Below are positions 681 through 48,592 of a DNA stretch of 64,000 nucleotides, piece by piece. Every line of letters begins with the position of its first letter. Positions within the stretch are counted from its first letter, which is position 1. A program made the position numbers and the translations under genes. Below the pieces are notes generated by a model. The model had not been told where the DNA came from and made no database searches. It saw nothing but the letters and a program-made list of their open reading frames with translations. The DNA is from an uncultured bacterium. GTDB taxonomy: Bacteria > Electryoneota > Electryoneia > Electryoneales > Electryoneaceae. The DNA lies in contig CAZKGR010000014.1 in NCBI GenBank assembly GCA_964552465.1, positions 14,970 to 78,969 on the forward strand, written 5' to 3'.

Positions 681-2693
681 ATGGGAAAGTCGTTTGAATT
701 AACCAGCACATATCAGCCGCGTGGTGATCAGGGAGACGCCATTGATGCACTGGTAAGAGCCTACCAAGCTGGCTCGGATTCGCAGTGCCTGCTGGGAATC
801 ACCGGGTCGGGAAAGACGTTCACCGTGGCCAATGTCATCCAGCAGCTCGGCAAACCCGCGTTGATCATGAGCCACAACAAAACCCTCGCAGCCCAGTTAT
901 ACGGCGAATTCCGTCAGTTCTTCCCGAACAATGCCGTCGAGTTCTTCGTCAGCTACTATGACTACTACATGCCTGAATCCTACATCCCGACCACCGACAC
1001 GTATGTCGAGAAAGAGACGGACGTGAATGCTGAGATCGACCGGCTCCGTCTTCGTGCGACATCGTCCCTGTTTGAACGGGAAGATGTGATCGTGGTCGCC
1101 AGCGTCAGCTCGATTTATGGCCTGGGCAATCCTGAAGACTACAAACGTATGTGCCTGTACCTCGAACCGGGGATGACGATCTCACGCGATGAGATTCTCA
1201 GCCGCCTGGTTGAGATACAGTACAACCGCACAAACGCTGACCTCGACTATGGTAATTTCCGAGCGCGTGGCGATACGGTCGAGATCATGCCGAAGTATGA
1301 GGATGAAGTCATCCGCATCGAGATGTGGGGCGATGAGATCGAGCGGATCAGCAAATTGCATCAGGTCACATTCGAGCTGCGCAGCGAGCTGAAGGGTGTT
1401 GCGATTTATCCAAACAGCCAGTATGTGGCGACGGTTCCGCGCATCGAGCAGGCGATGAAGACGATCCGTGTTGAGTTGGATGAAAACCTGGAACGTATGC
1501 GCAGCCAGGGGAAATTGCTCGAGGCGCAACGTCTGGAACAACGCACTCGCTTTGACCTCGAAATGCTTGGCGAAGTCGGGTTTTGCCAAGGAATTGAGAA
1601 CTATAGTCGTCATTTCACAGGCAAGAATGTAGGTGATCCGCCATTTACACTGTATGACTACTTCCCGGACGATTTTCTCGTGGTCATCGACGAATCTCAT
1701 GCCAGTGTGCCACAGATCGGAGCGATGTATCTGGGGGATCGTTCGCGGAAAGAGACACTGGTCGATTACGGCTTCCGGCTGCCGTCTGCATTGGACAACC
1801 GTCCGCTCAAGTTCCCGGAATGGGAGCAGCGCGCAAAACAGTTGCTGTTCGTCAGCGCCACACCGTCAAAATATGAATTGACGCGAACCGGTGGTGAAGT
1901 CGTCGAACAGATCATCCGTCCAACCGGTTTGCTCGATCCGCACATTGAGATTCGGCCCACCGAAGGGCAGGTGGACGATCTGATGGAGGAAGTGCGTTCA
2001 GCGGCGGAGCAGGGGGAACGGGTGCTCGTAACCACGTTGACCAAGCGTATGTCGGAGAACCTGACTGACTATCTGAGACGGCTGGACGTGCGTGTGCGTT
2101 ACCTGCACAGCGAGATTAACACGCTGGAGCGGACGGAAATCTTGCGTGACCTGCGTCTCGGCCAGTTCGATGTGCTGGTCGGGATTAACCTCTTGCGTGA
2201 GGGATTAGATCTGCCGGAAGTGGGATTGGTAGCCATTCTCGATGCTGACAAGGAAGGTTTCCTGCGTTCGGAAACGTCGTTAATGCAAACATCTGGACGT
2301 GCAGCGCGTAACGCGGCTGGACGTGTCATCTTTTACGCCGACTCGATTACCAAGAGCATGCAGAAGGTGATTGACGAGACGAACCGTCGTCGTGAGTTGC
2401 AGCACAAGTACAACGAAGAACACGGCATCGAGCCGAAAACGATCCGCAAAACGGTGGACGAAATCCTCGCCCAGACTCGCGCTGCCCATGAGCGTAAGAC
2501 TGAAGAGGTTGAGATTCCGGGCAGTGATGGTGTAGAGCTTACCGAAGAAGAGAAGGATGCTTTGATTGCTCGCATGGAAGAGCAGATGTTTAAGGCGGCT
2601 GACGCAATGGAATTTGAAAAGGCTGCGGTTTTACGCGATCAGATTGACAGGTTGAAGGGCAATAATGTTCCGCAGGAGTTTCAGAAAAGATAG
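681..2693 (+). CDS. uvrB: excinuclease ABC subunit B
   Basis: The ORF 585..2693 contains MGKSFELTSTYQPRGDQ (canonical UvrB N-terminus), GITGSGKTFT Walker A, helicase motifs and the C-terminal UvrB/UvrC-interaction motif (EFEKAAVLRDQI). Start placed at the ATG at 681. Confidence 0.93.
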   Translation: MGKSFELTSTYQPRGDQGDAIDALVRAYQAGSDSQCLLGITGSGKTFTVANVIQQLGKPALIMSHNKTLAAQLYGEFRQFFPNNAVEFFVSYYDYYMPESYIPTTDTYVEKETDVNAEIDRLRLRATSSLFEREDVIVVASVSSIYGLGNPEDYKRMCLYLEPGMTISRDEILSRLVEIQYNRTNADLDYGNFRARGDTVEIMPKYEDEVIRIEMWGDEIERISKLHQVTFELRSELKGVAIYPNSQYVATVPRIEQAMKTIRVELDENLERMRSQGKLLEAQRLEQRTRFDLEMLGEVGFCQGIENYSRHFTGKNVGDPPFTLYDYFPDDFLVVIDESHASVPQIGAMYLGDRSRKETLVDYGFRLPSALDNRPLKFPEWEQRAKQLLFVSATPSKYELTRTGGEVVEQIIRPTGLLDPHIEIRPTEGQVDDLMEEVRSAAEQGERVLVTTLTKRMSENLTDYLRRLDVRVRYLHSEINTLERTEILRDLRLGQFDVLVGINLLREGLDLPEVGLVAILDADKEGFLRSETSLMQTSGRAARNAAGRVIFYADSITKSMQKVIDETNRRRELQHKYNEEHGIEPKTIRKTVDEILAQTRAAHERKTEEVEIPGSDGVELTEEEKDALIARMEEQMFKAADAMEFEKAAVLRDQIDRLKGNNVPQEFQKR

Positions 2694-2730
2694 TTGCGAG
2701 TGATGAGTTGTGAGTTATGAGTGAAGAAAA
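2694..2730. repeat. left arm of an inverted repeat flanking the four-helix-bundle gene (GAGTGATGAGTTGTGAGTTATGAGTGAAG)
   Basis: Shares a 13-nt core ATGAGTTGTGAGT with the reverse complement of 3139..3170, plus imperfect GAGT-rich flanks. Confidence 0.5.
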
Positions 2731-2756
2731 CACGTTCTTTAATCACTGAGGGTAGG

Positions 2757-3110
2757 ATGCGCGATCATAGAACTTACAAAGCATTTCAACTTGCTGATGA
2801 CCTTTGTGTTGCGATCTATGCTGCTACCCGAGATTTTCCAAGAGAAGAAATATACGGATTGACTTCTCAATTACGTCGAGCTGCTGTTTCAGTTGTGTCA
2901 AATTTCGTTGAGGGTTGTGGACGAAACACAGATTCGGATTTTTTGCGTTTCTGTGACATATCATTTGGCTCATTAAGAGAGGTAGAATATCAAATCTCAC
3001 TGGCCAAACGGCTTGGGTATTTGACTGATCCCCTTCTATCAACAATCGAAATGAAATCCGATGAAACAATAAAGGTTCTGCGCGGACTTATACTTTCCAT
3101 GCGAGCCTGA
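2757..3110 (+). CDS. four-helix-bundle protein (23S rRNA intervening-sequence protein family, TIGR02436-like)
   Basis: About 117 aa from MRDHRTYKAF. The conserved LRRAAVSVVSNFVEG and LREVEYQISLAKRLGYL blocks are typical of this family. Sits between uvrB and purD. Confidence 0.7.
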   Translation: MRDHRTYKAFQLADDLCVAIYAATRDFPREEIYGLTSQLRRAAVSVVSNFVEGCGRNTDSDFLRFCDISFGSLREVEYQISLAKRLGYLTDPLLSTIEMKSDETIKVLRGLILSMRA

Positions 3111-3138
3111 TGAACGATAGGGTTGTTTGTGTTGTGTT

Positions 3139-3170
3139 ACTCACTACTCATCACTCACAACTCATAACTG
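3139..3170. repeat. right arm of the inverted repeat flanking the four-helix-bundle gene (ACTCACTACTCATCACTCACAACTCATAACTG)
   Basis: Its reverse complement contains ATGAGTTGTGAGT, identical to the core of 2694..2730. It could pair with the left arm across the gene. Confidence 0.5.
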
Positions 3171-9080: not shown

Positions 9081-10937
9081 ATGCGCAGTCCTGCTCCTTC
9101 GGTTACTATCTTTGCAGTATTCCGTAACGTGCACTTTGGGGATAATCTGTTGCACGAGAAATCTGATATCACAGAACCCGCAGCCACTCTCGAGCTGAAG
9201 ACCGGTCAACTCGCGACAGATGCAGACGTGATCAGCGCTCTAGTAACGAGAATGGTCGCCAAGACGATCGACCGGCATCAGCGATTTGATCGCCGTGGAA
9301 TCGTCGATCCGGACTATAACCGGACAAGATTTATCAATCCGCGTTGGCAGGAAAGTTGTTTGCTTCTGGCACTTGCAGGCACCAATCGAGTCTGCCTTCC
9401 GGAAGGTGTCCGCGCGCCTGAGCTGCTTACGGTCGCAGTTCGCATTGTTGATATCTGGTTACGTTCGCAGCAGCGCAATGGATCGGTTTGCACATCTCCC
9501 AACGGCTCGTCTGATCCTCAGGCAACAGCGTATGGATTGTACGCTGTTTCGCGCACGTTACAATTGGTCAGCAACCAGATCCCTACCATCATGCGCACCC
9601 GTGCGATCAAGGGCTTGAAGCGCGCTGCACGGTATCTGCAACATTCACCGGTACCACCAGGCCCAGACACACGTCCCTTGCGTGCAGCCGCTATCAAGGC
9701 GGCAGCTGAATACCTGGGTTCCAGCACGATTGAATCTGTCGCGAACGCAGTAAAGAAAGATGCTGATCGAGTGTTGAGGGATCAGCTTAGCCGTACGCTC
9801 CTTCCAAACGACGCAGGAGCATTCGCGCTGGCTCTGTCATACTTAAACCTGTTCACATCCAACCCAACATCAAGTGATCTGGAACTCTGGGAGGAGATCG
9901 TCAATCGCTGCCGTATGTCGACCACGCCTTCCGGAATAATGGGTGGCGGCGCGGAAACATCGATTGCTTGCCTGCCAGTCATAGCGGGTTTTGGATTAGC
10001 GGCCAAGTCTGTACCAAGCGCCGATCAGCAGGCGGAACTGCTTGAGCGTGCGTGGGCAATGCACTGGTATGATGGTCTAGTTGATGCGAATTCGCCGTGG
10101 CTCACGCCGATGGGTTACTTGATGTTCGAGTATCGGCTGGCAAGACCATACCGGCCATTATCGGACAACCCGTTCCCTCTGGATCGGGATCGGCTACTCG
10201 CTGAAAATGGATCAGGAATCTGGAAGGTTGGCGATTGGTTGATTCGATTGGGTGCTGGGGGAACACTCGGTTGGTTGCATCACCTGCCAAGCGATTCCAC
10301 TCGTTTGTTTGGATCGCCTGTGGGTTCAGCGCTTCGGGAAGGTCCGTGGCAGATGGAAGGTACTCGGATGCGTCACCCGGCGATGACGGGTCGTTTTCAT
10401 GTCATCCAAGATGATTCGTTAACCGTACTCGGCGAACTGCTTTCCACGAACATTCCTGGTGTGTATCGTCTGCCAGCTCGCAGGGGATTGACACGTACCC
10501 AAGGGCGATACAAACGAGACATTATCCGTCTTGCACCACCCCAGCTCAGCACAACCATGAAGATGAGTAATCCGTTGGACTATCGGCGGAAGATTGAGCT
10601 GAAGGATGGGGCATTAACAATTGAAACGACGATTCCCGGTCGGATTACGCACCGCCTTCCGATGATCTGGATCGGTGGACCCTACGGCGAATTGTATATC
10701 GGGAAGGTCAAAGCACGTGTGGGTAACATGCTGCAGGAACGGCGGGTGCGAGAGTTGACGTTCAAGGGTGGATTGTGGCCGGATTGGATTGTGCGCTTTG
10801 ACCGTCCGGTGGATATCCTGTATGAACCTGTAAACGTCGGCTTGGCCAACAGTCCCATGCGCTACCTGAGCGCTGCCTGCGGTGCAGTAGACATCATCAC
10901 AGATGACCGTCTACACATGGCGTGGCGAGTGGAGTAA
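9081..10937 (+). CDS. hypothetical protein (618 aa); weak resemblance to heparinase II/III-like two-domain proteins
   Basis: Long ORF with no strong motif I can name. An alpha-rich N-terminal half and a beta-rich C-terminal half. Start uncertain. Confidence 0.35.
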   Translation: MRSPAPSVTIFAVFRNVHFGDNLLHEKSDITEPAATLELKTGQLATDADVISALVTRMVAKTIDRHQRFDRRGIVDPDYNRTRFINPRWQESCLLLALAGTNRVCLPEGVRAPELLTVAVRIVDIWLRSQQRNGSVCTSPNGSSDPQATAYGLYAVSRTLQLVSNQIPTIMRTRAIKGLKRAARYLQHSPVPPGPDTRPLRAAAIKAAAEYLGSSTIESVANAVKKDADRVLRDQLSRTLLPNDAGAFALALSYLNLFTSNPTSSDLELWEEIVNRCRMSTTPSGIMGGGAETSIACLPVIAGFGLAAKSVPSADQQAELLERAWAMHWYDGLVDANSPWLTPMGYLMFEYRLARPYRPLSDNPFPLDRDRLLAENGSGIWKVGDWLIRLGAGGTLGWLHHLPSDSTRLFGSPVGSALREGPWQMEGTRMRHPAMTGRFHVIQDDSLTVLGELLSTNIPGVYRLPARRGLTRTQGRYKRDIIRLAPPQLSTTMKMSNPLDYRRKIELKDGALTIETTIPGRITHRLPMIWIGGPYGELYIGKVKARVGNMLQERRVRELTFKGGLWPDWIVRFDRPVDILYEPVNVGLANSPMRYLSAACGAVDIITDDRLHMAWRVE

Positions 10938-10956
10938 TATGATCAGACGATGCGAA

Positions 10957-11089
10957 GCACGTCATTCTGAGTCCGCCAGACGCCGGACTCAGAAGGTCGA
11001 ACTACGAGCCGATGACTCAGCTCATGTAGCATACTGTTCTTACCTGGATCTTCTTCACTTCACTACGTTTCGTTCAGAATGACCTGCTG
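10957..11089. repeat. MITE-like intergenic repeat, copy A (about 133 bp) with terminal inverted repeats ACGTCATTCTGA...TCAGAATGACCT
   Basis: About 85 percent identical to 40269..40389. The internal hairpin CTGAGTCCG...CGGACTCAG is kept in copy B by compensatory changes (GTCCGGC...GCCGGAC). Confidence 0.6.
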
Positions 11090-11114
11090 TGCATCAGGAT
11101 TTGTATACCAAGTA

Positions 11115-11140
11115 CAAAACGCCCCATACAGGGCGTTTTG
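11115..11140. terminator. bidirectional intrinsic-terminator hairpin CAAAACGCCCCATACAGGGCGTTTTG
   Basis: Perfect 9-bp GC-rich stem flanked by A/T runs, lying between convergent genes. Confidence 0.6.
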
Positions 11141-21610: not shown

Positions 21611-21698
21611 TGGATTTGCCCCAGGTGTCATCCTGAACGTAGTGCCTGTCAGCCGTAGCCTCGGCGTAGGTTGAAAGGATCTCTCGTTTGATAGTGTG

Positions 21699-21730
21699 AC
21701 CCGGTCCGGCAGCTGCCGGACCGGGTTTTT
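21699..21730 (+). terminator. intrinsic terminator CCCGGTCCGGCAGCTGCCGGACCGGG followed by a T-run
   Basis: Perfect GC-rich hairpin followed by TTTTT, downstream of nupC. Confidence 0.65.
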
Positions 21731-24155: not shown

Positions 24156-26699
24156 ATGAATCCTACACGTTCAACCATTGCCCCTGTTTACCTTCGGTTG
24201 TCACTCCTGATTTTCCTGTTTCTTCCAGCTGTCCCGGCAACTGCTCAAGTAACATTCAGCAACGAAATCCAGATTACCGGTTTTGAGACTGGGATCAATT
24301 CCGTCTATAGCATAGATTTGGATGGTGATGGCGATTTCGATATTCTCTCGTCATCAGAGACTGATGACAAAATATCGTGGTATGAAAACCTGGATGGATT
24401 TGGCAGTTTCGGGTATAAACAGGAAATATCAAATGAAGCAGATTATGCCTCAGATGTGATCGGGGCCGACATAGACGGAGATGGAGACTATGACGTCATC
24501 TCTGCTTCACGGCTCGATTATAAAATTGCCTGGTACGAAAATCTAGATGGCCTTGGCAATTTCGGGCAACAGCACGTCATTTCATCCAACGCTGCCTGGG
24601 CGACATCTGTTTGTAGTGCAGACCTCGATGGCGATGGTGATGTCGATATCCTCTCCTCATCCTGGACGGACAACAAAATCGCCTGGTATGAAAACCTGGA
24701 TGGGTGGGGGAACTTCAGTCCTGAGATCATAATCACTACCTCCTGCTCCGGCGCAAATGATGTCATCTGCAAAGATCTGGATGGTGATGGAGATCTGGAT
24801 GTTCTTTCTGCTTCAGATCATGACCCCAATATTGCGTGGTATGAGAACACAGATGGATTGGGAACATTCGGTGCACAACAAACAATTTCGAACTACGCTG
24901 ATGGGGCGAAAACCGTATTCAGCACAGATTTAGACGGGGATGGGGACAACGACGTAGTCTCTGCATCAGAAACGATTGGCGAAATATCCTGGCAGGAGAA
25001 TCTTGACGGTCTCGGCAGCTTCAGCGTCGAGCAAGTCATCGGAACCAGCACGTGGGACGTCCGTTCGCTATACGGTGACGATATGGATGGAGATGGGGAT
25101 TGTGATTTGCTCTCTGCACACGGTAGTTCCAGAGTTTCTTGGTTTCAGAACACAGATGGATTAGGAAACTTCGGTTGGCAAAGGTATTTGTCGGAGAGGT
25201 CGCGAGGTGTGGCGGATGTCATCACAGCAGACCTGGATGGCGATGGGGATAAGGAGGTTATATCAGCTGCAGACGAGTATGATTATATCGAATGGTTTGA
25301 AAACCTGGATGATTCAGATTATTTCGGCCAAACGAATATTATTACTGTTACTACAGTAGGACCGAGATGTGTCTATTCAGCTGATCTTGATGGTGATGGG
25401 GATAATGATCTACTCTCAGGCTCTGAGTACGATGACAGAATAGCGTGGTATGAGAATCTGGATGGAGAAGGAACATTTGGTCTCCAACGGACAATTGCGA
25501 TAGGTGCTCATTCTGGTATGAAAATTACATGCGGAGACTTGGATGGCGATGGTGACCTGGATGTCCTTTCCACTTCAAATTCTTATTTGTATTCAGATCG
25601 GTTGGCTTGGTACGAGAACCTGGATGGGTTAGGGAACTTCGGACCACAATACGTAATTAGACAAGGTAATGGTTCACCCATAGCATCATGCGCAGATTTG
25701 GATGGCGATGGTGATCTTGACGTCATTTCTGGTTCACATAGTGGATGGTTGACTTGGTATGAAAATCTGGATGGATTAGGGGATTTCGGGCTGGGTAGCC
25801 CGATCCCTCCCGATCTTGACGGCGCACAAGCTGTTTGTTGCGCGGATATGGACGGTGATGGTGACATCGATGTAGTCGCCAGCGATGGTGAGTTTTGGGG
25901 GGAAATTGTCTGGTATGAGAACCTGGAAGGATCAGGTGTATTTGGTGACCGGCAATTAGTGTCAGGTGCAAATGATAGCAGAACAAGTATTTTCTGTACC
26001 GATATCGACAACGATGGCGATATCGATGTAATCTCAGGAACCTACTCTGGTGGTGAACTCTATTGGTTTGAAAACCAGGATGGACTCGGCTCTTTCGCTG
26101 CTGGAACTCACCATGTATCACTCTATGCGTCGGGAACAACTTCGGTGTTCAGCGTCGATCTTGATAATGACGGTGATAATGATTTCCTCGCAAGTTCTAT
26201 CTATATGCCGAATATAACCTGGTATGAGAATACGGACGGTGCCGGCACTTTCGGCCCTCTTCAAGTTGTGTTCAACAATGCGATAGGATCTGAATCCATA
26301 TTCAGTGCAGATTTCGATAACGATGGCGACTATGATGTGGTCTCGGCATCACTTAATGAACATAAGATCTCGTGGTTCCGCAACGAGTTGATAACTGGAG
26401 TAGGCGAAGAAGTCATAGCTTCAGCTAATCCGAAAGGTTACCGGATACGATCAGTGTTCCCCAATCCTTTCAATCCAGTTACTACTATAGAAATTGAACT
26501 CCCAACTGTTTCTGGTCTGCGGCTGAGTGTTTTCGATGTCCAGGGACGGCGAGTGGCGATTCTTAATTCTCGTCGTCTTCCTGCTGGTTCACATTGCTTT
26601 TCGTTCGACGGTACGGACAGTGCGAGCGGAGTCTATTTTATCAGGGCTTTTGTGCCAGGTAAAATGAATGAGATACGAAAAATTATCCTGATGAAGTAG
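24156..26699 (+). CDS. FG-GAP/VCBS-repeat protein (about 13 repeats) with T9SS C-terminal sorting domain
   Basis: Signal peptide; about 13 repeats of DLDGDGDxDVxS...WYENLDGxGxF; C-terminal NPFNP...VYFIRA...KIILMK CTD. GGAGGA just before the ATG at 24156. Confidence 0.8.
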   Translation: MNPTRSTIAPVYLRLSLLIFLFLPAVPATAQVTFSNEIQITGFETGINSVYSIDLDGDGDFDILSSSETDDKISWYENLDGFGSFGYKQEISNEADYASDVIGADIDGDGDYDVISASRLDYKIAWYENLDGLGNFGQQHVISSNAAWATSVCSADLDGDGDVDILSSSWTDNKIAWYENLDGWGNFSPEIIITTSCSGANDVICKDLDGDGDLDVLSASDHDPNIAWYENTDGLGTFGAQQTISNYADGAKTVFSTDLDGDGDNDVVSASETIGEISWQENLDGLGSFSVEQVIGTSTWDVRSLYGDDMDGDGDCDLLSAHGSSRVSWFQNTDGLGNFGWQRYLSERSRGVADVITADLDGDGDKEVISAADEYDYIEWFENLDDSDYFGQTNIITVTTVGPRCVYSADLDGDGDNDLLSGSEYDDRIAWYENLDGEGTFGLQRTIAIGAHSGMKITCGDLDGDGDLDVLSTSNSYLYSDRLAWYENLDGLGNFGPQYVIRQGNGSPIASCADLDGDGDLDVISGSHSGWLTWYENLDGLGDFGLGSPIPPDLDGAQAVCCADMDGDGDIDVVASDGEFWGEIVWYENLEGSGVFGDRQLVSGANDSRTSIFCTDIDNDGDIDVISGTYSGGELYWFENQDGLGSFAAGTHHVSLYASGTTSVFSVDLDNDGDNDFLASSIYMPNITWYENTDGAGTFGPLQVVFNNAIGSESIFSADFDNDGDYDVVSASLNEHKISWFRNELITGVGEEVIASANPKGYRIRSVFPNPFNPVTTIEIELPTVSGLRLSVFDVQGRRVAILNSRRLPAGSHCFSFDGTDSASGVYFIRAFVPGKMNEIRKIILMK

Positions 26700-26864: not shown

Positions 26865-28328
26865 ATGGAGACCGAAGTCATGAGATCTATTCTTCTCGTT
26901 GTCTGTTTGCTGGCAGTGTCATCTGCCCTCGCGAGCCCAGTTTCTCTGGAAGAAGCGACGATAGCTGCCCATCGATTTGTCGAGTTCAGAACCGCATTAG
27001 ATCAATGGGATGGTCAAACGCCTGCAGAGATTCGTTTGGAACGCGTGATTGAGCATGAAGCGCAAATGTTGGCGTACTACTTCGAAGTTGATCCCGCCGG
27101 TTGTGTGCTGATATCCGGATTCCGCGAACTGCCACCGGTCAAGATGTACTCAGAACATCACCGCCTGACCTTTGAACAACCTGAATCCGCAGGGGTGATG
27201 ATCACTCAAGTGTTGCAGCAAAAGGCAGCGACCATCCGCAAGTATCCAGACCTCCCGGCAATGGCAGCTGCAGGCGTAGATGTCACGGCTGTGCAAGAGT
27301 GTTACGACTTGTGGCAAGTATTCACCCAACCGTCACACGAGGCGTTTGTCGAAGAAGCGGTTGCTCGAGAACTTGATGAATACATCCCCGGCACCATCCT
27401 GATCGATTCCATCTGGCATCAGGAAGCACCGTACAACAATTTCTGTCCGATCGAGAACACGGAGAACTGCAAAGTCGGCTGTGTCGCGACCGCTACCGCA
27501 CAAATCATGTATTACTGGCAGTGGCCAGAAGCAGGGCAGGGATCACATGGTTATACGTGGAATGGGCAACTTGTCTCCGCGAATTTCAGCGATCCGTACG
27601 ATTGGAACGACATTCTGCCGGAATACGGGCAACCATGGGAACACACCGAAGACGAACTCAACGCGATCGCTGAATTGTGCTTTGAAGTCGGCGTAGCATA
27701 TGAAATGAACTATGGGGTGGATGGCTCCGGTGCGTTCACTTCAGACGTGATCACGATTCTACCACAGTATTTCCGTTACCTCGATGGCATAGCTGAAGAG
27801 TCCAGAGTCGCGTATCCGGATGATCAGGCATGGTTCGACATGCTTTGCACTGAGCTTGATCTGGAACGTCCGATGATGTACACCATCCGAAACGCTGATT
27901 GGGGTCACGCTATTGTAGTTGATGGATATCGCGTCGAGTTGGATGTCAACGAGCTACACATAAACTATGGCGGGTGGGAGGATATATTCCTCGGGTGGTA
28001 CGCGTTGGATGCCATTCCTTATGCCGACTGGCCCGATACCGAAACAGCGTATCGCTACATCCAGCCAGATACCCAGGCCGGCGATCCCGATGCTGTAGTG
28101 ATCACGCTTACCCCGGAACAATACCCATACATGATAGTCCCGCAAGGCGGATCCTTCACCTATGACCTGACACTCGAAACTAACTTGGATCAACCTGTTT
28201 ACGGATGTCCAAAAGATCCTCTTCGTCCAGTAGAGACGAAAAGCCTCATCCAGGTAGAAAGGGCGGCCCTGTTTGCTTGTCAAACAGGGTTTCATTTGTT
28301 AGGTAGTAGTCGATGGATAAGTGTATGA
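26865..28328 (+). CDS. C10-family (streptopain/PrtT-like) cysteine peptidase with N-terminal pro-domain; 3-prime truncated, no T9SS CTD
   Basis: Signal peptide; catalytic Cys block NCKVGCVATATAQIMYYWQWP and His block WGHAIVVDGYRVE. Homology to the paralog at 29817..31730 stops after TLETNLDQP. The last roughly 42 codons derive from repeat-like sequence and run through a terminator-like hairpin. Confidence 0.7.
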   Translation: METEVMRSILLVVCLLAVSSALASPVSLEEATIAAHRFVEFRTALDQWDGQTPAEIRLERVIEHEAQMLAYYFEVDPAGCVLISGFRELPPVKMYSEHHRLTFEQPESAGVMITQVLQQKAATIRKYPDLPAMAAAGVDVTAVQECYDLWQVFTQPSHEAFVEEAVARELDEYIPGTILIDSIWHQEAPYNNFCPIENTENCKVGCVATATAQIMYYWQWPEAGQGSHGYTWNGQLVSANFSDPYDWNDILPEYGQPWEHTEDELNAIAELCFEVGVAYEMNYGVDGSGAFTSDVITILPQYFRYLDGIAEESRVAYPDDQAWFDMLCTELDLERPMMYTIRNADWGHAIVVDGYRVELDVNELHINYGGWEDIFLGWYALDAIPYADWPDTETAYRYIQPDTQAGDPDAVVITLTPEQYPYMIVPQGGSFTYDLTLETNLDQPVYGCPKDPLRPVETKSLIQVERAALFACQTGFHLLGSSRWISV

Positions 28329-29423: not shown

Positions 29424-29458
29424 GGACTAACGTATTATAGACCTGCTCATCTCATAAA

Positions 29459-29539
29459 GACGAAACGCCTCATCCAGGGAGGGAGAATGAGGCGTTTTGC
29501 ACTGCATATGGTTAACAGGCGGTGAGTGGCAAGTCACCG
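29459..29539. repeat. about 80-bp repeat carrying an intrinsic terminator (AAACGCCTCATCC...GGATGAGGCGTTTT) and a second small hairpin, copy 1
   Basis: Near-identical to 31732..31811. A degenerate third copy lies inside the 3-prime end of C10 copy 1 (about 28235..28260). Confidence 0.55.
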
Positions 29540-29553
29540 TCAGGCAAAGCCTG

Positions 29554-29816: not shown

Positions 29817-31730
29817 ATGCGAACCATGATGCTTGTTTGCTGTATTGTGCTGGTAATTTCCACTGCACTGGCTGACACTGTTACTCTTGAGGATGCGACA
29901 ACCGCCGCACAACGATTTGTTGAGTACCGCACCGCGTTGGATTCATGGGATGAAAACACACCGACTGATATTCGTCTTGAAAGAATCATCGAACAGGATG
30001 GAATGCCAATCGCGTACTACTTCGAGGTTGAACCTGCGGGTTGTGCGCTAATCTCGGGTTACCGTGAACTACCCCCGGTCAAGATGTACTCCGAACAGTA
30101 TCGCCTTGAATTTGATCATGCTCAATCCGCCGGGATGATGATCACCCAGGAATTGCAACAGAAGGCGGCGACTCTCGCTCGACATAACGATCTGGCCTCC
30201 ATGTCAGCCGCTGGCATTGACGTATCCGCAGTGCAGGAGTGCTATCAACTCTGGCAGGTGTTCACGCAGCCATCACTAGACTCGTTTATGGAAGAAGCCG
30301 CCAGCCGTGAACTGGACGAATATGTGCCCGGAACCTATCTGGTCGACGCGATCTGGCACGAATTTACGCCTTACAATGCTTACTGTCCTGTTTATGATAA
30401 TGAACACGCCCAGGTCGGTTGTGTGGCGTTGTCGTCAGCTCAGATAATGTACTACTGGCAGTGGCCACCGGCTGGACAATCATCACATCAATACCTGTGG
30501 AATGGGGAATGGATTTCTGCGAATTTCAGCGATCCCTATGATTGGAACAACATCTTGCCAGAATACGGTCAACCGTGGGAACACACAGTGGCCGAGCTGA
30601 ACGCGATCGCGGAATTGTGTTTTGAAGTTGGCGTAGCATATGAAACGATGTACAGCGTATTTGGATCAGGAGCCGATCCAACAGACATTCCGCTCGTTCT
30701 CCCTCAGTATTTCTTCTACCAACTTGGTATTTCAGAAGAATGGAAGATCAATTACCCGGATGATCAAGCCTGGTTCGATGTATTGTGTGCAGAGTTGGAC
30801 TTGGAACGTCCGATGATGTACATCGTCGAAAACGACTTATGGGGGCACGCATTCGTCGTTGATGGTTATCGCGTCGAGTTGAATGTCAATGAGCTCCATA
30901 TCAACTATGGGGGGTGGGAGAATATCTTCCTCGGTTGGTATGCAATTGACTCTATACCCTACTCCGATTGGCCTGATGCTGAAAGAGCATATTTGAATTT
31001 CCAGCCGGATTTCGACGGCTATGATCCAATTCCATTATCTATCAATGTTATTCCAGAAGAACAGCAATACCTGCTTGTTCCCCAAGGTGGGTCCTTCGCT
31101 TACGATGTAACCCTGGAAACAAACATAGATCAACCTCAATTCGGTTGGGTCTGGATTGAACCCATCCTGCCTTCAGGGCAACCGTACGGTCCCATCCAAA
31201 GCTTGCGTATGCTTTTCCTGCCCGGGATGTCGCTTTCTATCTCAAACATAGTGCAGGATGTTCCGCTTGATGCACCGCTTGGCTATTACCAGTACTGGAT
31301 TCATGTGGGATCGACGATGGGTGTTCCTGTATCATCCGACTTTTTCCCGTTCTCTGTTTACGCACCGGAACCAGACAACGTGGCGGGTAATCATGAATGG
31401 GAATCGCACGGCCTCGAACGTCTTGTAGCAGGATCATCCAGCGAACCATCGGGATTGCAGCCACAAGTATGCACCGTCGCCCCGATCTATCCAAATCCAT
31501 TCAACGGTTCGACAACGATTACAATGTCGCTTGCAGAAACGGCTATGGTCCAAATTGATGTTGTGAATACGCTTGGGCAGACAGTGTTGCAAATCACGAA
31601 AGGAGTCCATTCTCATGGGCAACATCGGTTCCAGTTTAATGCCGAGGCGCTGACAAGCGGTGTGTATTTCGTGACTACAAGTGCAGCGGGGCAAAACGTT
31701 AATGTTCAAAAGATCCTTCTACTGCAATAA
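29817..31730 (+). CDS. C10-family (streptopain/PrtT-like) cysteine peptidase with T9SS C-terminal sorting domain
   Basis: Signal peptide; pro-domain; catalytic Cys HAQVGCVALSSAQIMYYWQWP and His WGHAFVVDGYRVE; C-terminal CTD (YPNPFNGSTTI...VYFVTT...KILLLQ). GGGAGGGG RBS. Confidence 0.8.
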   Translation: MRTMMLVCCIVLVISTALADTVTLEDATTAAQRFVEYRTALDSWDENTPTDIRLERIIEQDGMPIAYYFEVEPAGCALISGYRELPPVKMYSEQYRLEFDHAQSAGMMITQELQQKAATLARHNDLASMSAAGIDVSAVQECYQLWQVFTQPSLDSFMEEAASRELDEYVPGTYLVDAIWHEFTPYNAYCPVYDNEHAQVGCVALSSAQIMYYWQWPPAGQSSHQYLWNGEWISANFSDPYDWNNILPEYGQPWEHTVAELNAIAELCFEVGVAYETMYSVFGSGADPTDIPLVLPQYFFYQLGISEEWKINYPDDQAWFDVLCAELDLERPMMYIVENDLWGHAFVVDGYRVELNVNELHINYGGWENIFLGWYAIDSIPYSDWPDAERAYLNFQPDFDGYDPIPLSINVIPEEQQYLLVPQGGSFAYDVTLETNIDQPQFGWVWIEPILPSGQPYGPIQSLRMLFLPGMSLSISNIVQDVPLDAPLGYYQYWIHVGSTMGVPVSSDFFPFSVYAPEPDNVAGNHEWESHGLERLVAGSSSEPSGLQPQVCTVAPIYPNPFNGSTTITMSLAETAMVQIDVVNTLGQTVLQITKGVHSHGQHRFQFNAEALTSGVYFVTTSAAGQNVNVQKILLLQ

Positions 31731-31731
31731 C

Positions 31732-31811
31732 AACGAAACGCCTCATCCAGGGAGGGGAATGAGGCGTTTTGCACTGCATATGGTTAACAGGCGGTGAGTG
31801 GCAATTCACCG
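31732..31811. repeat. about 80-bp terminator-containing repeat, copy 2 (downstream of C10 copy 2)
   Basis: Near-identical to 29459..29539. Confidence 0.55.
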
Positions 31812-31939
31812 GCTGGTACAACCGATTGAAACCGAGATCCTTCTCGTGCCTGCGGCACGTCAGGACGACTTCGTGGGACACTTTGGGGACAAAGTGTCCC
31901 GTATTTGCATGCTTTCTATAGCCTGCAGCCTACAGCCCG

Positions 31940-40220: not shown

Positions 40221-40268
40221 ACGACAGGCTCTCGAGTGACACTCGAAATCAAGATCTGAAGATGCCAG

Positions 40269-40389
40269 GCACGTCATTCAGAGTCCGGCAGCCGCCGGAC
40301 GAAGAAGGTCGAACTTCAGCACAAGTAGCAACCAGTTTCTTAGCTGGATCTTCTTCACTTCACTGTGTTCAGTTCAGAATGACCTGCCG
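40269..40389. repeat. MITE-like intergenic repeat, copy B (about 121 bp)
   Basis: About 85 percent identical to 10957..11089; carries an 11-bp internal deletion. Same terminal inverted repeats, with a compensatory internal hairpin. Confidence 0.6.
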
Positions 40390-40414
40390 CTCATTTCTGT
40401 TTGTCATTAACCAG

Positions 40415-40446
40415 AAACTGCCACGGACATTCGCCCGTGGCAGTTT
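40415..40446. terminator. bidirectional terminator hairpin AAACTGCCACGG...CCGTGGCAGTTT
   Basis: 12-bp perfect stem lying between convergent genes. Confidence 0.55.
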
Positions 40447-47820: not shown

Positions 47821-47894
47821 TGGGCGTTACTGGAGTCGAACCAGTGACCTCTGCCATGTCAAGACAGCGCTCTAACCAACTGAGCTAAACGCCC
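47821..47894 (-). tRNA. tRNA-Val (anticodon GAC)
   Basis: GGGCGTTTAGCTCAGTTGGTTAGAGCGCTGTCTTGACATGGCAGAGGTCACTGGTTCGACTCCAGTAACGCCCA; cloverleaf with a 7-nt anticodon loop TTGACAT. Confidence 0.85.
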
Positions 47895-47996
47895 GACCTC
47901 AAAATCACTGCCAATGATTTCTCATTGTTCAGCGGACATGTTGAACATGTGCAGGTTCAGTGTCTTCGTTCACTCCAGTCACTATTCCCGCGTTAG

Positions 47997-48079
47997 TACC
48001 GGGAGCCGGACTCGAACCGGCACAGGGAATTCCCCGGGAGATTTTAAGTCTCCTGCGTCTACCATTCCGCCACCCCGGC
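47997..48079 (-). tRNA. tRNA-Leu (anticodon TAA), long variable arm
   Basis: GCCGGGGTGGCGGAATGGTAGACGC...CTTAAAATC...GTGCCGGTTCGAGTCCGGCTCCCGGTA. Confidence 0.85.
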
Positions 48080-48179
48080 ATATTCGAATGGGTCCGGAAT
48101 CGGTGGAGCCGAATCGTCTGGCCCATCCCTGGTAGTCAAAGAACCTTCCGGCGTACGCCTCGCCATCCTCACCATCTTG

Positions 48180-48252
48180 AGGCGGCGGCCGGATTCGAAC
48201 CGGCGAATAAAGGTTTTGCAGACCTTCGCCTTAGCCACTTGGCCACGCCGCC
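48180..48252 (-). tRNA. tRNA-Cys (anticodon GCA)
   Basis: GGCGGCGTGGCCAAGTGGCTAAGGCGAAGGTCTGCAAAACCTTTATTCGCCGGTTCGAATCCGGCCGCCGCCT. Confidence 0.85.
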
Positions 48253-48343
48253 GTGTTACTGCTGAAACATTTGTTTCGCACGACCCGTTTCGGCGAGGCG
48301 TAAAACCCCGAACCAGGCGTCCTGAGGACCCTCACCCGGGGGC

Positions 48344-48419
48344 TGGAGCGAGAGACGGGACTCGAACCCGCGACAACCACGTTGGCAACGTGGAGCTCTA
48401 CCAACTGAGCTACTCTCGC
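48344..48419 (-). tRNA. tRNA-Gly (anticodon GCC), CCA encoded
   Basis: GCGAGAGTAGCTCAGTTGGTAGAGCTCCACGTTGCCAACGTGGTTGTCGCGGGTTCGAGTCCCGTCTCTCGCTCCA; layout parallels E. coli tRNA-Gly(GCC). Confidence 0.85.
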
Positions 48420-48519
48420 CTGTCCAACATTGGCGAAACCACTACTGATTTCGCCCTCATTCAAGCGACCGGAAAATGTACGTTCCGGCCTCATAGAATG
48501 CAAGATTCCCAAGGGGACG

Positions 48520-48592
48520 TGGAGCCTAGCGGGATCGAACCGCTGACCTCCTGAATGCCATTCAGGCGCTCTCCCAGCTGAGCTAAGGCCCC
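48520..48592 (-). tRNA. tRNA-Ala (anticodon GGC), G3:U70 present, CCA encoded
   Basis: GGGGCCTTAGCTCAGCTGGGAGAGCGCCTGAATGGCATTCAGGAGGTCAGCGGTTCGATCCCGCTAGGCTCCA. Confidence 0.85.

Follow-up and report, generated by a model that had tools for sequence, protein, structure and literature searches.

Head-to-head hairpin repeats, probably of the CGTC-tagged REP class, between stop codons and terminators in an uncultured bacterium

Introduction

Among described repeats, those closest to the elements reported here are the CGTC-tagged REPs (Di Nocera, De Gregorio and Rocco, 2013, PMC3733652). They are defined there by a CGTC tag, with TGTC and CCTC as variants, a stem of 8-9 bp that opens with A-T pairs, a loop of 4-5 nt, for which exceptions of other lengths are noted, and a short unpaired tail. 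They occur in many copies per genome, mainly as head-to-head dimers with the tags outside and 20-100 bp apart, beyond the 3' ends of ORFs where the spacer is convergent or unidirectional, and no associated transposase is reported. Neisseria dRS3 and Rickettsia RPE-4 and RPE-6 are counted as members of the same superfamily (PMC3733652).

A biochemical activity has been described for one of these members. According to Chenal et al. (2025, PMC11893778), SsnA is a 94-aa GIY-YIG protein that binds the NTS as single-stranded DNA (ssDNA) and cuts upstream of it, being inactive on double-stranded DNA, RNA and the reverse strand. The NTS is the oriented form of dRS3, CGTCATTCCCGCGMAVGCGGGAATCYRG (CGTCATTCCCGCG..GCGGGAATC), and related hairpins, the Ssn-related motifs (SRMs), flank ssn genes across phyla (PMC11893778). 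A second group of systems with a similar architecture comprises the REPINs and BIMEs associated with RAYT, the REP-associated tyrosine transposase of IS200/IS605 type (Bertels and Rainey, 2011; Nunvar, 2010).

Architecture of the repeats and their genomic setting

The sequence analysed is a 64-kb stretch of a contig (hereafter, the window), in which an initial annotation had noticed a MITE-like repeat of 120-135 bp present twice. Both copies are indeed there, on the + strand, and the shared segments extend slightly further than described, copy A occupying 10941..11094 and copy B 40253..40394, with 86% identity when aligned (about 85% had been claimed). Beyond these segments the flanks are unrelated (repeat families D14/D15, alignment A1), so the copies do not derive from a segmental duplication. 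The 19-mer GGATCTTCTTCACTTCACT occurs twice in the window, against 0.03 occurrences expected. The common end TCAGAATGACCT and the internal block CTTCTTCACTTCACT were correctly described; the common start was not, since copy B begins with ACGTCATTCAGA (...TCAGA, not ...TCTGA). In copy A, around 19 nt of shared flank precede the first tag and around 10 nt follow the last one, and these flanks are mutually inverted (ATGCGAAGCA / TGCTGTGCAT). Copy B recurs without any change in 4 more contigs of this organism that come from different samples.

Each copy follows a long + strand gene whose stop codon lies at 10937 (copy A) or 40220 (copy B); one of the encoded proteins has 618 aa and no Pfam match, and the other is a 1592-aa AMP-binding/GNAT protein. 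In agreement with the initial annotation, a terminator hairpin is found 25-30 nt beyond each copy, of GC type with flanking runs of A and T and with a convergent gene on its far side. After copy A this is the bidirectional terminator-like hairpin AAAACGCCC-CATACA-GGGCGTTTT (11116..11139), located between convergent genes, which was read directly from the sequence and was not called by a simple terminator scan; after copy B it is AAACTGCCACGGAC..GCCCGTGGCAGTTT (40415..40446), which the terminator scan did report. Both hairpins lie outside the repeat. A stem of the form CCACGGAC..GTCCGTGG recurs as a terminator-like structure at different loci, in the window at 40419-40445 and in two contigs of the closest relative (L126, 11842-11862; L130, 14764-14785).

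Each copy consists of two inverted hairpin units of around 38 nt, arranged head-to-head with their tags outward. The frame of a unit is NGTC-AT-xyz-GA-(variable inner hairpin)-GA-z'y'x'-AT-C, which in the window copies takes the form NGTC-AT-TCT-GA-(inner hairpin)-GA-AGA-AT-C. In copy A, unit A1 (10960..10998, + strand) displays a CGTC tag, an ATTCT stem, the inner hairpin GAGTCCG..CGGACTC and AGAAG-GTC, and corresponds to the family-consensus frame NGTCAT-TCT-GA-(hairpin)-GA-AGA-ATC. It is followed by a 48-nt spacer (10999..11046), in which a hairpin of its own is possible and which carries the sole indel, of 13 nt, between the two copies. Unit A2 (11047..11084, - strand) is of a different, long-loop type; its minus-strand reading is GGTCATTCTGAACGAAACGTAGTGAAGTGAAGAAGATCC, and it fits the consensus gaGATTCTTCACTTCACTnCGTTnCGTTCAGAATGACA, derived from 100 of the 120 distinct matches of the metagenome search described below. 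Copy B repeats this arrangement with unit B1 (40272..40310, + strand; CGTC tag, ATTCA, GA, inner hairpin GTCCGGC-AGCC-GCCGGAC, GA, AGAAG-GTC), a spacer of 36 nt and the long-loop unit B2 (40347..40384, - strand; minus-strand reading GGTCATTCTGAACTGAACACAGTGAAGTGAAGAAGATCC). The inner-hairpin subtype of B1, GTCCGGCACAGCCGGAC, is also present in the metagenome loci L123, L046 and L081.

Two further units stand alone. Unit C (21626..21681, + strand), recovered with a generic unit scan and by inspection of the sequence, reads TGTCAT-CCT-GA-(36-nt loop with three CGTAG repeats)-GA-A-AGG-ATC and starts 16 nt past the stop of a nucleoside-transporter gene, 18 nt ahead of a terminator at 21699-21730. 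The stem of that terminator (21703-21726, GGTCCGGCAGCTGCCGGACC) is nearly equal to the inner hairpin of B1. Unit D (31836..31870, - strand), AGTCGT-CCT-GA-CGTGC-CGCAG-GCACG-AGA-AGG-ATC, is located downstream of the minus-strand hsp20 gene and ahead of a hairpin at 31736-31770. A covariance model of the short unit (R1), whose length is too small for it to be decisive and which gives scores of 10-13 bits to known window units, matched A2 (11044-11086, - strand, 12.8 bits, E 0.45), B2 (40344-40386, - strand, 10.3 bits, E 2) and D (12.7 bits, E 0.48); the match to D is weak by itself, and the full frame is visible in its sequence. A third candidate position, 46126, falls inside a gene and was discarded as a chance match.

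In total, the window contains 6 units at 4 sites, all of them between a stop codon and a terminator, and at 4 of 4 sites the first, tag-first unit is in sense with the upstream gene. The tags are CGTC at 10960 and 40272, TGTC at 21626, GGTC in the inverted units (11084 and 40384) and AGTC at 31870. The outermost A-T pair has degenerated to A.G in all 4 paired units, and unit D has G.T in its place.

The units share several traits with CGTC-tagged REPs: an unpaired tag of CGTC/TGTC type, tags-outside dimers whose spacers of 48 and 36 nt fall within the published range of 20-100 bp, an intergenic location downstream of coding regions in convergent or unidirectional context at 4 of 4 sites, a short unpaired tail, no transposase gene alongside and a patchy presence among related genomes. 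The A-T start of the stem is found in the family consensus and in unit C and is replaced in the paired units and in unit D as indicated above; the stem of short units reaches 9 positions if two G.A mismatches are counted. In contrast, the loops deviate from the 4-5 nt of the description, being of 3-4 nt in short units and, in the window, replaced by nested hairpins or 17-36 nt; the stem is AT-rich (ATTCT/AGAAT) and broken by a tandem G.A/G.A step before a nested inner hairpin; and the partner unit has a conserved, purine-rich loop of 17 nt. The host, nearest to a Calditrichaeota MAG, also lies outside the five phyla listed in the study, and the comparison was made with the study's description of the repeats.

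A large family in metagenomes

We searched metagenomes with a pattern taken from the 3' half of the element, TCTTCACTTCAC-N6-16-CAGAATGAC, which fixes the long-loop unit and therefore biases the retrieval of relatives. At least 120 loci were recovered, from samples that include gut, sludge, sediment and freshwater, those listed being on contigs other than those of the window's organism. Among the matches listed, the gap has exactly 11 nt in 102 of 120 distinct sequences, positions left unspecified by the pattern show 85-99% conservation and the GC content of the hosts spans 27-62%; the common gap, the conservation of unspecified positions and the wide range of host GC together imply that these are true relatives and not chance matches. 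The family is very widespread. The initial annotation had named as its refutation the finding of only two copies inside a larger segmental duplication, which is contradicted both by the size of the family and by the unrelated flanks of A and B.

A typical element has the structure TGTCATTCTGA-GCGAAGC-GAAGAATCTC, spacer, GAGATTCTTC-ACTTCACTnCGTTnCGT-TCAGAATGACA, its second half being the reverse complement of the unit frame with a longer purine-rich insert. The frame is common to about 400 distinct units in the loci that were fetched, and in more than 90% of the family's units the base ahead of GTC is T. Unit length varies between 25 and 56 nt across the family, and units occur singly, paired and in tandem arrays, with 348 of 398 located within 200 nt of another unit. 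A search of plasmids with copy A as query gave no match, and with the family consensus it gave copies only in cyanobacterial plasmids, those of Planktothrix and Calothrix, where they are unannotated and in tandem. Exact occurrences of the 19-mer in a genome collection were limited to two, both inside unrelated genes and attributed to chance, as was the single match of a viral-contig scan, located in coding sequence. A literature search by sequence strings returned primer matches only.

With regard to genomic context, the elements of the metagenome loci listed lie in convergent (22), tandem (33) and divergent (8) positions and inside ORFs (4), that is, they avoid divergent spacers. The orientation found in the window is not preferred among pairs ((-,-) 21 vs (+,+) 12), and single units are 17 times sense and 10 times antisense to the adjacent gene end, a difference that is not significant (p 0.25). 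The absence of a sense preference, the clustering in tandem arrays and the avoidance of divergent spacers correspond to the behaviour of a REP-like DNA repeat and not to that of an oriented RNA element. Clustering of neighbouring ORFs within 1.5 kb of about 120 elements revealed no recurrent partner. ORFs beside half-only copies were considered as a possible cargo gene between the halves and proved to be ordinary flanking genes.

In ten loci (L011, L016, L018, L024, L025, L038, L085, L107, L111 and L121), a lone long-loop unit is followed 12-20 nt on by a very strong GC hairpin like GGGGTGGGTGGCGGCGAAGCCGCCACCCACCCC, and several of them carry an upstream block, ACTAnCCGATTAAATTGATGG; these may represent a composite repeat.

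Units fold on themselves

Both copies have folding energies below those of shuffled controls, with z values of -3.0 (+ strand) and -4.0 (- strand) for copy A and -5.3 and -4.5, respectively, for copy B. The initial annotation had interpreted the differences between their internal hairpins as compensatory, which the alignment does not bear out. In copy A, CTGAGTCCG is paired with CGGACTCAG and leaves a C.C mismatch inside; one C>G change in copy B mends this mismatch, giving GTCCGGC/GCCGGAC and a longer inner helix, three substitutions remove outer CTGA/TCAG pairs present in A, and 0 pairs are altered on both sides.

True compensatory change appears at the level of the family only. Among 69 distinct full metagenome elements, 38 have a stem core other than TCT in the 5' unit, and in 31 of these 38 the exact complement is found within that same 5' unit, with seven stem types (ATTCC/GGAAT in 14, ATCCT/AGGAT in 8, ATGCT/AGCAT in 3, plus four others). 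All 31 self-complementing stems necessarily mismatch their 3' unit. Since the 3' unit is the one fixed by the search pattern, the 5' unit provides an unbiased test of self-folding. In an alignment of 58 short units, two inner pairs covary (GC 30 / AU 21 and CG 39 / UA 9); these inner pairs had not been used in the selection of the units, while the outer three pairs are paired by construction and carry no evidential weight. The AT...AT outer stem is invariant in 58 of 58 aligned units and is also present in unit C.

The same pattern is observed beyond the metagenome elements: the 3' units of the Planktothrix plasmid copies have ATCCT/AGGAT, with compensation inside the unit, and one contig of a relative (L127) combines ATCCT/AGGAT in one unit with ATGCT/AGCAT in its partner. 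The inner hairpin is free in sequence and length (GCGAAGC, GGCGTAGCC, GGGTGAAACCC, GTCCGGC..GCCGGAC). The units fold on themselves rather than end-to-end and, given that compensation occurs within units, the "terminal inverted repeats" of the copies are the outer arms of two separate hairpins. The initial annotation was right in proposing a selected hairpin structure.

Occupancy in related genomes

Syntenic contigs of three relatives were reached via the flanking proteins. In the closest one (81-83% amino-acid identity; L126, L130), where sites A, B and D were compared, all three are empty and the terminators are kept: the hairpin of 11116-11139 is found at the orthologous site in L126, which is without the copy A element, and a homologue of the hairpin of 40415-40446 in L130, at the orthologous position, which is empty. 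Across 46 kb of this relative's genome no unit was seen. Sites A and C were compared in a more distant relative. In GCA_020444425.1 (69-76% identity), site A (69% relative) carries a diverged pair plus extra half-copies, and at site C (L131, 76% relative) a short unit, TGTCATCCTGAGCGCAGCGAAGGATC, is located exactly at the orthologous position; relative to it, unit C of the window shows a 30-nt loop expansion, and the surrounding spacer has diverged. Occupancy shifts on the time scale of close species and some insertions persist, as follows from the sites empty in the closest relative and from the retention of site C in the 76% relative. No target-site duplication is visible at the sites compared, whose spacers are too diverged to place exact junctions.

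At site A of GCA_020444425.1 (L127, 6800-6870 and 7190-7260), the units are nested in a larger inverted repeat of simple sequence, similar to GGTAnTCGGTA, and two extra tandem copies of a 45-nt piece beginning with the 5' unit are present.

Relationship to the Ssn nucleases

The similarity to the substrates of Ssn proteins is apparent in the sequence itself. The NTS shares with our units the 5' frame (C/T)GTCAT-TC...GA-ATC, and comparison of the NTS, CGTCATTCCCGCGMAVGCGGGAATC, with the short units, TGTCATTCTGAGCGAAGCGAAGAATC, reveals the same tag, the same first stem bases and the same last stem bases at nearly equal length. An SRM is a hairpin of 20-50 nt that is oriented by a conserved, non-palindromic sequence upstream of it, a role that the NGTCAT tag, upstream of the stem, fills in our units of 25-56 nt. 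Nevertheless, the published SRM motif HGTCWYN(0-2)YYVSBRHN(0-5)WNVSBRGN(0-2)RNCYNB matches 0 of the 6 window units, and its two matches in the window are unrelated to them and look like chance (0.38 expected).

A profile search that took in every ORF of the loci (886 kb) detected three proteins of about 100 aa composed only of a GIY-YIG domain (Pfam PF01541), the classification resting on the Pfam GIY-YIG family, while the family named for published Ssn proteins is cd10448. On either side of the L117 gene stand GTCATGCTGA..GAAGCATC units in direct orientation, with a long-loop unit adjoining; the L077 gene is preceded, at a distance of about 120 nt, by a long-loop unit and a GTCATCCCGA..GGGATC unit; and in L055 the gene is 2 kb from the units. 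The first two loci place units of this subfamily beside a GIY-YIG-only gene, like the motif-gene-motif layout that Chenal et al. describe for Ssn systems, and by a rough, uncomputed estimate around 0.1 such adjacencies would arise by chance. The same type of profile search, covering the window and about 190 kb of DNA of the organism and its relatives, gave no Ssn-like ORF, so a cognate nuclease in the host is assumed.

Taken together, we consider it probable that copies A and B are head-to-head pairs of the CGTC-tagged REP class, in the broad sense that comprises Neisseria dRS3/NTS and the SRMs, and that as ssDNA hairpins they are bound and cut by an Ssn-family nuclease encoded elsewhere in the genome. 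Handling by an Ssn-type GIY-YIG nuclease is the most likely mechanism, as judged from the family resemblance and the two metagenome cassettes. The units would be exposed as single-stranded hairpins and bound by an Ssn-family nuclease, small and with GIY-YIG as its single domain, with a putative cut a few bases upstream of the tag, and through this interaction they could spread and persist as non-autonomous repeats. Their accumulation between stop codons and terminators would reflect the tolerance of insertions at such positions. As a side effect, upstream transcripts would end in a stable stem-loop that may protect the 3' end of the mRNA, as for other REPs; a REP-style effect of this kind is plausible and compatible with the ssDNA mechanism. 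The SRM mismatch, the loop sizes, the degenerate A-T pair and the sense placement between stop and terminator, which would also fit an RNA role, are features of the window at odds with an Ssn/CGTC assignment.

The repeat class is already described and widespread, and the window copies are ordinary intergenic palindromic repeats in tolerated positions. What they add is that the published search motif covers just part of the world of CGTC-REPs and SRMs: widely differing habitats and hosts abound in an AT-rich subfamily that contains G.A and that, at least sometimes, flanks small GIY-YIG genes. Should this site, as ssDNA, be cut by those nucleases, a new specificity would be added to a family proposed as ssDNA tools. 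The presence and absence of units among close relatives, together with one conserved orthologous unit, offers material on how CGTC-type repeats spread.

The long-loop unit deserves separate consideration. Its minus-strand reading, TGTCATTCTGAACGnAACGnAGTGAAGTGAAGAATC, hardly changes across more than 100 metagenome contigs whose GC content spans 27-62%, while the 5' partner varies freely; this near-invariance comes in part from the search pattern, which fixes the unit, and the unspecified positions are conserved as well. We tentatively raise the rather unlikely idea that it is a module under selection of its own, at which a conserved single-strand-binding protein, Ssn-like or other, recognises the DNA with a specificity outside the SRM motif. 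If so, the long-loop site and its protein would constitute a new and very widespread enzyme/site pair, of which the L117 and L077 cassettes would be the autonomous form.

Alternative explanations

The window by itself could suggest that the elements work as RNA, either as a structured 3' UTR transcribed with the upstream gene or as a small RNA, stabilising or regulating the mRNA. All four sites lie between stop codon and terminator with the tag-first unit in sense, the folds are below shuffled controls (z -3 to -5), unit C is retained in the 76% relative despite the diverged spacer, and REPs have been reported to act as RNA hairpins (PMC3733652). Yet the two strands fold equally well, the family as a whole has no sense preference among single units or pairs, units also form tandem arrays and 3 of the 4 window sites are empty in the closest relative. 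Rfam contains no family that matches at gathering thresholds in the whole window and 13 loci, and at E values up to 10 around both copies it returned terminator-like noise only. A dedicated RNA function is therefore unlikely, and of the three classes proposed in the initial annotation (MITE, REP-like element and small RNA), the last is disfavoured by the lack of Rfam matches and orientation bias and by the variable presence.

The other alternatives retain a mobile DNA element and change the enzyme that moves it. Two inverted REP-like hairpins able to form one larger hairpin, non-autonomous, clustered, intergenic and long-lived at some sites, are what PMC3337134 and the studies of Bertels and Rainey (2011) and Nunvar (2010) describe for REPINs and BIMEs, which would make a RAYT rather than an Ssn nuclease the mobilising enzyme. 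These systems differ in having a GTAG tag and a tyrosine transposase, neither of which was seen here: the tag is CGTC/TGTC (NGTC), Di Nocera et al. (PMC3733652) report no tyrosine transposase gene flanked by CGTC repeats, and the ORF clustering within 1.5 kb of about 120 elements, a weak test, gave no recurrent transposase-like neighbour. We regard mobilisation by a RAYT as very improbable. Even less credit is due to a classical MITE, whose terminal inverted repeats (TIRs) would be recognised by the DDE transposase of a related insertion sequence and whose insertion would leave a target-site duplication, notwithstanding the size of 120-150 nt, the apparent 14-nt TIRs GCAnGTCATTCTGA / TCAGAATGACCTGC, the intergenic location and the two copies. 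The supposed TIRs are halves of independent hairpin units that are also found alone (21626 and 31836), compensation takes place within units and not end-to-end (31 of 38), the direct repeats suggested as a check in the initial annotation flank neither copy, and the neighbourhoods of about 120 elements contain no matching insertion sequence. It is the REP-like option of the initial annotation that agrees with these observations, and a pair of CGTC-tagged REP-class units handled by an Ssn-type nuclease is the reading that we prefer.

Additional features of the window

Several other features were noted in the window. A gene at 2757-3110 encodes a 117-aa four-helix-bundle "23S rRNA intervening-sequence protein" (PF05635); on its two sides stand imperfect inverted repeats rich in GAGT (2692-2722 and 3139-3169), which are 92% complementary. 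L126, the relative with 81% identity, lacks this entire cassette (2692-3169) between uvrB and purD, so that it looks like an insertion. A link of the REP-like units to this gene was rejected, as the inverted repeats there are different. An intergenic module of around 120 nt is repeated at 29429-29551 and 31702-31823 (also 28205-28257). It combines the hairpin AAACGCCTCAT..ATGAGGCGTTT with GGTGAnTTGCCACTCACCGCCTGTTAACCATATGCAGTGC, a conserved block, has no Rfam match and is kept downstream of hsp20 in L130; it may represent a small RNA or else act as a terminator module.

Within the gene of a large secreted protein, 24300-26350 comprises approximately fourteen tandem coding repeats of 153 nt with a DxDGDGD motif (FG-GAP/VCBS-like). 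Several genes near this region encode C-terminal domains of the type IX secretion kind, an indication that the organism belongs to the Fibrobacteres-Chlorobi-Bacteroidetes group; among named homologues, the nearest are those of a Calditrichaeota MAG. Finally, five tRNA genes are clustered on the - strand at 47821-48592.
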